Below, piece by piece: positions 57,593 to 58,276 of a stretch of 64,000 bases of DNA. This DNA comes from Escherichia coli. Its GTDB lineage: Bacteria > Pseudomonadota > Gammaproteobacteria > Enterobacterales > Enterobacteriaceae. Positions within the stretch are counted from its first letter, which is position 1; the number at the start of each line of letters is the position of its first letter. Position numbers and translations under genes: made by a program. Location: NCBI RefSeq assembly GCF_041886205.1, contig NZ_CP169029.1; one strand, given 5' to 3'. A model generated the notes under the pieces. That model worked only from the letters and a program-made list of their open reading frames with translations, did not search any database and was not told the origin of the DNA.

Positions 57593-57780
57593 GTCATGAT
57601 ACCTTGGTTAAAAAACAAACAGCAATTATGTGCCGAATATTCGCAGTGTAACTTTTTCCACATGCGTTGTTCAATTCTCTGATTTATATTGCTTTTTAGG
57701 TTGCCGGTAATCGAGTTGCGCAACACTGCAACGGGTTTTCCAAATCTGGTCACTGAAAATAAACAGGATCTTACACCATG

Positions 57781-58105
57781 TTATCCACAGAAAGCTGGGA
57801 TAACTGTGAAAAACCTCCACTACTGTTTCCATTTACAGCCTTGACGTGCGACGAAACTCTAGTTTTTAGTGGTTCAGTGCTTAACTTAGTGGCACATTCT
57901 GTGGATAAATACGGCATTGGTTGATCTTTCGCCAACCCGTAAATGAGAGGTGTGACCTGGGTCACGAATTACTCTTTTTCATTACTCAAATTACATGTAA
58001 TGCATTGACTAATAATGAATATTTTAAAATGTCTATATCGGGCTTATTCAGAATGCTCCGGGTTTTCCCGTAGTAATTCCGTAGTTCTTCACAACTCTAT
58101 CCACA
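57781..58105. promoter_or_regulatory. DARS2-like DnaA-reactivating region with three DnaA boxes in the mutH-rppH intergenic region
   Basis: ttatccaca at 57781-57789, tgtggataa at 57900-57908, ctatccaca at 58097-58105. Confidence 0.55.
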
Positions 58106-58276
58106 GAAAAGGTGAATAAAAACGGCTATCCACCCCTTCCTCTGTTTATAACTCTGCACATAACTGTGAGTTATTCAATTGTTATTAGTGTGTAATGCCC
58201 TGCAGAGAGTGGTTTACCGTCTTCCTGGAGTATGAAACAATCATTCGTATATAAAGCTTTATATTGAGGTAGTCCG

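Follow-up and report, generated by a model that had tools for sequence, protein, structure and literature searches.

The 64-kb window analysed here, which is the whole 64,000-nucleotide stretch of Escherichia coli DNA, contains the divergent genes mutH and rppH, separated by an AT-rich spacer (39% G+C). The preliminary description had placed a cluster of DnaA boxes in a 684-bp divergent intergenic region at 57593-58276, and these limits fit the spacer exactly.

56903-57592, minus strand: mutH coding sequence, from the open reading frame list and the K-12 annotation.
57593-58276: mutH-rppH spacer, 684 bp, the whole interval between the two starts of the divergent genes.
58277-58807, plus strand: rppH coding sequence with a GTG start, from the open reading frame list and the K-12 annotation; ptsP is the next gene.

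The sequence of this spacer identifies it, with very little doubt, as DARS2, the non-coding DnaA-reactivating site of E. coli, which catalyses nucleotide exchange on the replication initiator DnaA and so returns it from the ADP to the ATP form. DARS2 is the main ATP-DnaA regeneration site, and it sets the timing of replication in E. coli and its relatives; recognizing it keeps the spacer from being taken for empty DNA or for the doubtful gene ygdT. In K-12 the element lies at NC_000913.3 about 2969112-2969566 (chromosomal position 64 min, 2.97 Mb), between rppH and mutH, with the same locus and neighbours as here, and Stringer 2024 likewise places it upstream of mutH; how far it lies from oriC bears on its timing. 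The local gene order, ptsP-rppH-DARS2-mutH-ygdQ-ygdR, is that of K-12, for which the annotated order in MG1655 reads ptsP-rppH-ygdT-mutH-ygdQ. Since DARS2 is already well studied, the identification, although correct, is not itself new, in keeping with the preliminary description, which had presented the site as a known element and not a novelty. The value added by the present analysis is comparative only.

Of 5426 complete E. coli genomes, 5424 contain the spacer, with 95-100% identity over its 684 bp. Its alignment with K-12 MG1655 is gap-free, with 679 of 684 bases the same (99.3%), and the absence of any indel means that all site spacings are those of K-12. Five single-nucleotide differences separate the two sequences (57607, 57860, 57987, 58011 and 58263), none of which touches a DnaA box, an IHF-site 13-mer or the 21-mer described below. 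Within the 455-bp DARS2 proper, 452 bases are the same and there are no indels; the three substitutions fall in unconserved spacer (57860), between FBS1 and the IHF sites (57987) and in the 3-bp linker between IBS1 and IBS2 (58011, A here and G in K-12), the flanking 13-mers being identical to K-12. The three substitutions are not expected to make a functional difference, and the near-identity to the tested K-12 sequence suggests that the allele in the window would support IHF- and Fis-dependent ADP release and would stimulate initiation.

Published constructs allow the functional parts to be placed to the base. Primer and oligonucleotide sequences from Kasho 2014 (Table S1), Frimodt-Moller 2015 and Miyoshi 2021 were located in the window; the primers define the 455-bp fragment, the deltaRight and deltaCore deletions, the 21-mer and the sites replaced in substitution mutants (boxes IV, V and VI, and FBS6), and the oligonucleotides define FBS1, FBS2-3 and FBS4-5. 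All 24 of the 24 published primers and oligonucleotides match the stretch exactly, which bears out the DARS2 identity that had been proposed. The parts are as follows.

57688-58142: full-length DARS2 as cloned in pOA61, exactly 455 bp.
About 57717-57732: FBS6, the stretch substituted with primers Ksh-9/10, a Fis site that is dispensable.
57769-57789, plus strand: box VI with a degenerate box upstream (TCTTACACC or CTTACACCA), the published 'double DnaA box'.
57781-57789, plus strand: box VI, a perfect TTATCCACA, replaced by primers Ksh-34/35.
57900-57908, minus strand: box V, a perfect TTATCCACA, located by primers Ksh-32/33 and the FBS2-5 subDnaA box V oligonucleotide.
57910-57930: critical 21-mer with FBS2-3, TACGGCATTGGTTGATCTTTC, the difference between primers MutH-11 and MutH-17.
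57910-58142: minimal DARS2 (deltaRight), containing the core, box IV, IBS1-2, FBS1 and FBS2-3; primer MutH-11 lies at 57910-57930.
57952-57982: FBS1 region, a dispensable Fis site, from oligonucleotide FIS-1U.
57998-58026: IHF sites IBS1-2, a 29-mer of two inverted 13-mers 3 bp apart.
57998-58010, plus strand: IBS 13-mer TAATGCATTGACT, one mismatch to TAAnnnnTTGATW.
58014-58026, minus strand: IBS 13-mer TAAAATATTCATT, one mismatch to TAAnnnnTTGATW.
58044-58052, plus strand: box IV, TTATTCAGA, one mismatch, replaced by primers Ksh-30/31.
58085-58119: essential core with boxes III, II and I, from deltaCore primers MutH-14/15 and the Frimodt-Moller MutH-9/10 arms.
58085-58093, plus strand: box III, TTCTTCACA, one mismatch.
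58097-58105, plus strand: box II, CTATCCACA, one mismatch, 3 bp after box III.
58111-58119: box I, GGTGAATAA, reading TTATTCACC on the minus strand, one mismatch, 5 bp after box II.
58143-58151, minus strand: a further conserved DnaA-like box, TTATAAACA, one base beyond the 455-bp fragment.

All published functional sites of DARS2 are thus present with the published order and spacing kept: boxes I-VI, IBS1-2, FBS1, FBS2-5 and FBS6 stand exactly as in K-12, and there is no argument in the sequence against the identification. The core, deleted as the identical interval 58085-58119 in the constructs of two laboratories, reads TTCTTCACA-ACT-CTATCCACA-GAAAA-GGTGAATAA. Boxes I and II are opposed across a 5-bp gap and boxes II and III are co-oriented across a 3-bp gap, in agreement with Sugiyama 2019, who also report that box II of DARS2 carries one mismatch. 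The IHF and Fis sites that the preliminary description had wished to see checked are present, at 57998-58026 (IBS1-2) and 57910-57930 (FBS2-3). The 29-mer of IBS1-2 is the unit moved by the published traIL/traIR primers, matches the published traIL/insIBS primer sequences except at linker base 58011, and is accompanied by a PciI site (ACATGT, 57993-57998), as in Kasho 2025. The 21-mer is identical to K-12, adjoins box V and includes a GATC (57923-57926) that is conserved; oligonucleotide F23U (57904-57941) spans the 21-mer, and F45U and FBS2-5-f are also exact matches. Box V overlaps FBS4-5. In the literature, the 21-mer with FBS2-3 is needed for activity and box IV is dispensable; according to Kasho 2014 the deltaRight construct retains activity, while loss of 21 bp more inactivates the site. 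The FBS1 region holds the only exact match to the Fis consensus GnnYAnnnnnTRnnC (57960-57974).

The density of DnaA boxes was compared with chance expectation. Exact copies of TTATNCACA occur at 57781-57789 (plus) and 57900-57908 (minus), two of only three in the 64-kb window, and nine boxes with at most one mismatch (two exact, seven with one mismatch) lie within the 684 bp.

Starts of boxes with at most one mismatch, plus strand: 57654, 57781, 58044, 58085 and 58097.
Starts of boxes with at most one mismatch, minus strand: 57805, 57900, 58111 and 58143.

From the density elsewhere in the window, 0.64 such boxes would be expected in 684 bp. In 1000 dinucleotide-preserving shuffles of the AT-rich spacer itself, the mean was 1.11 +/- 1.04 and no shuffle reached nine; exact boxes averaged 0.06 per shuffle, and two were present in one shuffle of the 1000. 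These shuffles, together with the conservation described below, exclude a chance origin for the cluster. In window order the published set comprises six boxes, VI(+), V(-), IV(+), III(+), II(+) and I(-). The three alternating boxes reported earlier were an undercount of these, although the best three (VI+, V- and II+) do alternate. The two perfect boxes, V and VI, belong to the regulatory right half and are outside both the core and the minimal element. Boxes falling outside the mapped core had been named as grounds for rejecting the assignment; two of the three do so literally, yet all are within the 455-bp DARS2 and the identity stands. Among these likely three boxes, only the one-mismatch box II (CTATCCACA) falls in the core.

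The literature provides a mechanism into which this arrangement can be fitted. According to the published work, two to three ADP-DnaA molecules occupy core boxes I-III; those on the opposed boxes I and II make a head-to-head contact through Gln208 of their AAA+ domains and release ADP, and box III backs up DnaA assembly on the core. IHF bound at IBS1-2, stabilized by negative supercoiling, turns the DNA through a U-turn that brings Fis at FBS2-3 beside the core; Fis Gln68 is proposed to touch the DnaA dimer through the loop, and the meeting of Fis and DnaA sets off ADP release. Apo-DnaA then departs and takes up ATP, so that ATP-DnaA rises before initiation. At the peak of ATP-DnaA, an oligomer extending from box V over FBS2-5 displaces Fis and switches the site off, a negative feedback; Miyoshi 2021 describes box V as the point of ATP-DnaA assembly that evicts Fis, over low-affinity boxes V-a, V-b and V-c. 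A 5-bp shift of the IHF or the Fis site impairs the reaction (literature). In the window, the centre of core boxes I and II (58108) lies 96 bp from that of the IHF sites (58012), which is in turn 92 bp from that of FBS2-3 (57920). Placement of IBS1-2 midway between the core and FBS2-3 is consistent with a U-turn that sets Fis against the core.

The closest known relative is DARS1, in the bioD-uvrB spacer, which has the same three-box core with boxes I and II head-to-head across a 5-bp gap and box III co-oriented with box II, reading TACACATGGTTATCCACAGGAATAGTGGATAA in DARS1 and TTCACAACTCTATCCACAGAAAAGGTGAATAA in the window. Unlike DARS2, which requires IHF at IBS1-2 and Fis at FBS2-3 (literature), DARS1 measures 101 bp, needs neither IHF nor Fis and has a perfect box II. 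It too adjoins a DNA-repair gene, uvrB, with an SOS box. Another non-coding DnaA-box cluster, datA, shares with DARS2 the control of activity by timed IHF occupancy, at a single site in datA, and a DnaA ChIP signal as strong as that of DARS2. Its output, however, is the opposite, ATP hydrolysis on ATP-DnaA oligomers, and it differs further in having no Fis requirement, no head-to-head pair and another locus. The DnaA-oligomerization region of oriC resembles DARS2 in combining high- and low-affinity boxes with IHF and Fis sites, and its arrays spaced at 2-3 bp recall boxes V, V-a, V-b and V-c. By comparison of the literature only, no duplex-unwinding element is described in DARS2, the key boxes of oriC are head-to-tail whereas those of DARS2 are head-to-head, and the output of oriC is unwinding whereas that of DARS2 is nucleotide exchange.

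The perfect boxes V and VI also raise the question of whether the cluster acts mainly as a passive sink for DnaA, of the datA type or by generic titration, and not as a reactivation catalyst. Stringer 2024 report three DnaA ChIP-seq peaks at DARS2, of 78x, 199x and 213x, which correspond to about 58130, 57948 and 57753 in the window (window position = 3027254 minus genome coordinate), near the core, box V and box VI, respectively. Under the 213x peak these authors found tCTTACACCAtgTTATCCACAg, and they named box VI with its upstream degenerate box a 'double DnaA box'. The signals at boxes V and VI, both perfect R-type boxes, are thus level with those at datA (213x) and oriC (218x) and above that at the core, and Olivi 2025 includes DARS and datA boxes among titrating sites. 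Titration as the main function is nevertheless improbable: a cell given additional DARS2 copies over-initiates and does not under-initiate; ATP-DnaA in vivo falls in the deltaCore, subIBS1-2 and subFBS2-3 mutants; and substitution of box V raises initiation through lost Fis eviction, a specific mechanism (literature). Boxes V and VI may titrate DnaA as a side effect of an element whose business is reactivation.

To follow DARS2 beyond E. coli, we used a degenerate core pattern, TNCACA-N4-TATNCACA-N6-GTGNATAA, which has 19 fixed bases and for which about two chance matches are expected in the collection. At least 120 loci matched. Among the matches listed, 19 have mutH and/or rppH as a neighbour. 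They belong to other Enterobacterales (Citrobacter, Enterobacter, E. albertii, Superficieibacter, Yersinia, Acerihabitans, Photorhabdus, Providencia and Arsenophonus) and to Vibrionaceae (Vibrio and Enterovibrio). Another 17 of the matches listed adjoin uvrB and/or bioD, as does DARS1. The pattern recovers DARS1 and DARS2 in the same genomes, several of which have one locus of each type. A core beside mutH and/or rppH is also found in Salmonella and Klebsiella. The element of Photorhabdus, Providencia and Arsenophonus has kept mutH, but not rppH, as its neighbour. A search for DARS2 on natural plasmids (PLSDB) returned seven matches, all seven of them mislabelled chromosomes or chromosome-sized records; the mislabelled records served as the Salmonella and Klebsiella sequences.

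A footprint of constraint was obtained from a 13-species alignment as identity to E. coli across 12 other Enterobacterales, with an overall mean of 0.61. Boxes V and VI score 1.00, the core boxes 0.93-0.94, the box at 58143-58151 0.94, the degenerate box upstream of VI 0.93 and the block ATTTACAGCCTTGACG 0.93. FBS2-3 scores 0.69, with a GATCTTT block kept, the IBS 13-mers about 0.58, box IV 0.49, FBS6 0.42 and FBS1 0.40; across genera, neither the IHF 13-mers nor box IV is conserved above background. Positions are held as well as sequences. Counted from box III, the positions in Enterobacterales are -301 to -304 for box VI and, in all those examined, -182 to -186 for box V; the corresponding Vibrio positions are -311 to -313 and -191 to -193. 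The 58143-58151 box lies at +56 to +58 in every species with sequence there, so that all three hold their places in Vibrio too. This last box matches the consensus perfectly in Vibrio mexicanus, V. hepatarius and Arsenophonus. It appears not to be required for plasmid activity, pOA61 being active without it; in the published DARS2-tet strains, the marker sits at 58141/58142, between the core and this box (D2TET-1 arm 58142-58190).

Part of the conserved right half is also annotated as a gene, the only RefSeq annotation under the spacer in E. coli genomes.

57778-57924, plus strand: ygdT open reading frame, 48 aa, RefSeq-annotated, overlapping the stretch from box VI to FBS2-3.

Were ygdT a small coding gene, the conservation of 57778-57924 could be its own and the DnaA boxes there incidental. 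RefSeq does name 'protein YgdT' in E. coli genomes, and the frame is intact in E. albertii and one Citrobacter. Of the 12 relatives, however, six carry a stop codon that ends the frame after 9-39 aa (Citrobacter werkmanii, E. cloacae, Enterobacter Bisph1, Acerihabitans, Photorhabdus and Providencia), and five have no aligned ATG (two Yersinia species, Providencia, Arsenophonus and Enterobacter BIGb0383). When substitutions are counted by codon position (9/10/6 and 11/16/8 are examples), the third position has no surplus, and the conserved blocks coincide with DNA sites while the middle of the frame is at or below background (50%). Truncated or startless in most relatives and free of third-position bias, ygdT is probably not a real gene, and we rejected the coding hypothesis; that it accounts for the conservation is exceedingly improbable.

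The same region invited comparison with the core. Around box VI the arrangement TCTTACACC-3bp-TTATCCACA-5bp-CTGGGATAA resembles core geometry, and collinear repeats (TGCnnCGGGTTTTCC, TATCCACAGAAA and ATAACTGTGA) are shared by the box VI region and the core module, the third of these not being conserved outside E. coli. A 'second DARS core' acting here as an independent reactivation site was rejected on chromosomal data, because deltaCore, in which the right half is kept, lowers ATP-DnaA as much as subIBS1-2 or subFBS2-3 and removes what DARS2 contributes.

Parts that are dispensable in over-initiation assays on plasmids, namely box VI with its flanks and the +58 box, are therefore conserved as strongly as the essential core, and the DnaA ChIP-seq peaks at the locus lend independent support from in vivo data. 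Constraint of this order on boxes V, VI and +58 points to chromosomal regulation, and the flanks called 'dispensable' probably have a chromosomal role. One further feature of the right half deserves a place beside them.

57821-57840: palindrome resembling a LexA (SOS) box, TACTGTTTCCATTTACAGCC, situated between boxes VI and V and 228 bp upstream of the mutH ATG.

Its CTGT-N8-ACAG core (57823-57838) is the only match in the 64-kb window, and CTG-N10-CAG is kept in 15 of 15 Enterobacterales sequences aligned and is absent in Vibrio. Merida-Floriano 2021 found Salmonella mutH to be 3.6-fold up with nalidixic acid and listed for it one putative LexA box 228 bp upstream of the ATG (heterology index 12.99). 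Salmonella and E. coli have the same 20-mer, so the box of Merida-Floriano 2021 is the palindrome in DARS2; the published index places this 20-mer in the range of polB and yoaA (13). Induction of mutH by nalidixic acid could equally run through DnaA. A literature search found no link between LexA and DARS2, and Merida-Floriano 2021 do not mention DARS2. The putative SOS-like box within DARS2 is a lead, and the parallel with DARS1, which sits beside the LexA- and DnaA-controlled uvrB, is suggestive only.

We advance tentatively, and with a good deal more doubt than belief, the idea that the right half and the box past the cloned fragment form a conserved composite control module. It would consist of the double DnaA box at VI, the LexA-box-like palindrome, box V and two conserved GATC sites, all keeping a near-fixed distance to the core in species ranging from E. 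coli to Photorhabdus. If the idea is true, such a module could feed signals of DNA damage or replication status (LexA, Dam/SeqA and DnaA occupancy) into DnaA reactivation and/or mutH expression. The double DnaA box at VI has already been published; the link of an SOS box to DARS2 and the fixed spacing appear to be unpublished. Nothing relevant emerged when the literature was searched for box VI in connection with DARS2, or for DARS in Pseudomonas.

The palindrome also bears on another interpretation, in which the boxes are operators from which DnaA, possibly with LexA and CRP, regulates transcription of mutH and/or rppH-ptsP, promoter control being the reason for their conservation. The palindrome is conserved in all Enterobacterales aligned, and the 3.6-fold induction in Salmonella is listed with it. 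The DnaA box TTTTCCACA (57654-57662) abuts the sole sigma-70 promoter predicted in a promoter scan, GTTACA-16-CATAAT (57652-57625, mutH strand), near mutH. DARS1, in addition, shares its spacer with the LexA- and DnaA-regulated uvrB, whose SOS box is about 295 bp from the DARS1 core. Against this, the scan placed no promoter-like site beside box V, box VI or the SOS-like box; mutH is absent from a published table of classical E. coli SOS genes and from the whole of that paper; and IHF reportedly binds and leaves DARS2 independently of transcription (rifampicin). The function of the core, IBS and FBS sites in DARS2 has, moreover, been directly demonstrated (literature). Promoter control as the explanation for the cluster is accordingly unlikely, and service as an operator of mutH or rppH can be no more than an extra role of the right half of what remains a DnaA-reactivating element.

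Some minor features of the spacer may be recorded. A search of Rfam at E<=1 over 57300-58600 found no structured RNA. In the right half of DARS2, GGGATAAC is present at 57797-57804. A CRP-like palindrome, TGTGA-N6-TCACG (57951-57966), overlaps the FBS1 region and, together with a weak stem in the mutH leader, accounts for the 'terminator' hits; its halves, GTGA and TCAC, do not vary among E. coli, Salmonella, Klebsiella, Citrobacter and Enterobacter.

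Within DARS2, the DnaA-reactivating sequence of the mutH/rppH spacer, and along its edges, the following features were recorded, the CRP-like palindrome and both promoters being candidates by sequence only.

Features in and around DARS2
57625-57662, mutH strand: contains candidate promoter GTTACA-16-CATAAT
57767-57770: GATC (Dam) site in the flank of box VI, -318 from box III
57778-57924: ygdT, a 48-aa RefSeq gene overlapping box VI to the Fis site FBS2-3
57821-57840: LexA/SOS-box-like palindrome TACTGTTTCCATTTACAGCC within DARS2, flanked by boxes VI and V
57923-57926: GATC (Dam) site within the critical Fis 21-mer, -162 from box III
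57951-57966: CRP-like palindrome TGTGA-CCTGGG-TCACG within the FBS1 region
58143-58151: DnaA-like box TTATAAACA, one base past the end of the published 455-bp DARS2
58148-58174: inverted repeat ATAACTC-N13-GAGTTAT, its left arm overlapping that box
58213-58241, rppH strand: conserved candidate promoter TTTACC-17-(TGa)AACAAT

The SOS-box-like palindrome is the single occurrence of CTGT-N8-ACAG in the window, and its CTG-N10-CAG is unchanged across 15 Enterobacterales sequences. A putative SOS box has been described for Salmonella mutH, 228 bp from the ATG and with a heterology index of 12.99 (Merida-Floriano 2021); judged by sequence, this and the DARS2 palindrome are one site. A literature search returned nothing connecting an SOS-box-like palindrome to DARS2.

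The GTGA and TCAC halves of the CRP-like palindrome are invariant in Escherichia, Salmonella, Klebsiella, Citrobacter and Enterobacter while its 6-bp centre varies, and the E. albertii version is a perfect TGTGA-N6-TCACA. In most Enterobacterales the two GATC sites are retained, each at its fixed distance from box III; neither GATC nor SeqA occurs in the searched text of the DARS2 paper (Kasho 2014). Between E. coli and Vibrio the DnaA-like box beyond the cloned fragment stays in place, at +56 to +58 from box III, and some species have a perfect DnaA box there. The arms of the adjoining inverted repeat are kept around a variable loop, also where the neighbouring gene is not rppH. The ygdT reading frame itself is not conserved, given stops, missing start codons and the absence of third-position bias, and the gene is probably an annotation artefact spanning conserved DNA sites.

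A degenerate pattern for the DARS core matched at least 120 loci (L002-L121), and the box triple is widespread beyond Enterobacterales and Vibrionaceae (for example L008, L010, L005, L025-L028, L014, L047 and L021). Among the matches listed, the core is identical in many Pseudomonas species, where it lies upstream of an FKBP-type gene, Legionella carries up to 5 copies in a genome, and Xanthomonadales, Nitrosomonas and other Betaproteobacteria possess the triple too. Outside Enterobacterales and Vibrionaceae none of the listed matches has mutH, rppH, uvrB or bioD nearby; their neighbours by Pfam are FKBP, HhH-GPD, ABC-F, URO-D (hemE-type) and exonuclease VII large subunit (xseA-type) proteins, together with frr, recognised by sequence rather than Pfam. 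A literature search found no paper on DARS in Pseudomonas, Legionella, Xanthomonadales, Nitrosomonas or other Betaproteobacteria. Several PLSDB 'plasmid' matches to DARS2 (H16-H22) proved to be chromosomes or chromosome fragments of 0.57-5.4 Mb with mutH and rppH, and no genuine plasmid carrying DARS2 was found in that search.

The box VI module (57727-57809) and the core module (58054-58169) share three short collinear direct repeats, TGCnnCGGGTTTTCC, TATCCACAGAAA and ATAACTGTGA, a correspondence that hints at an old internal duplication; the third, ATAACTGTGA, shows no conservation beyond E. coli. As a separate observation, DARS2 is flanked on both sides by the candidate promoters, and a TTTTCCACA box adjoins the -35 element of the one on the mutH strand.
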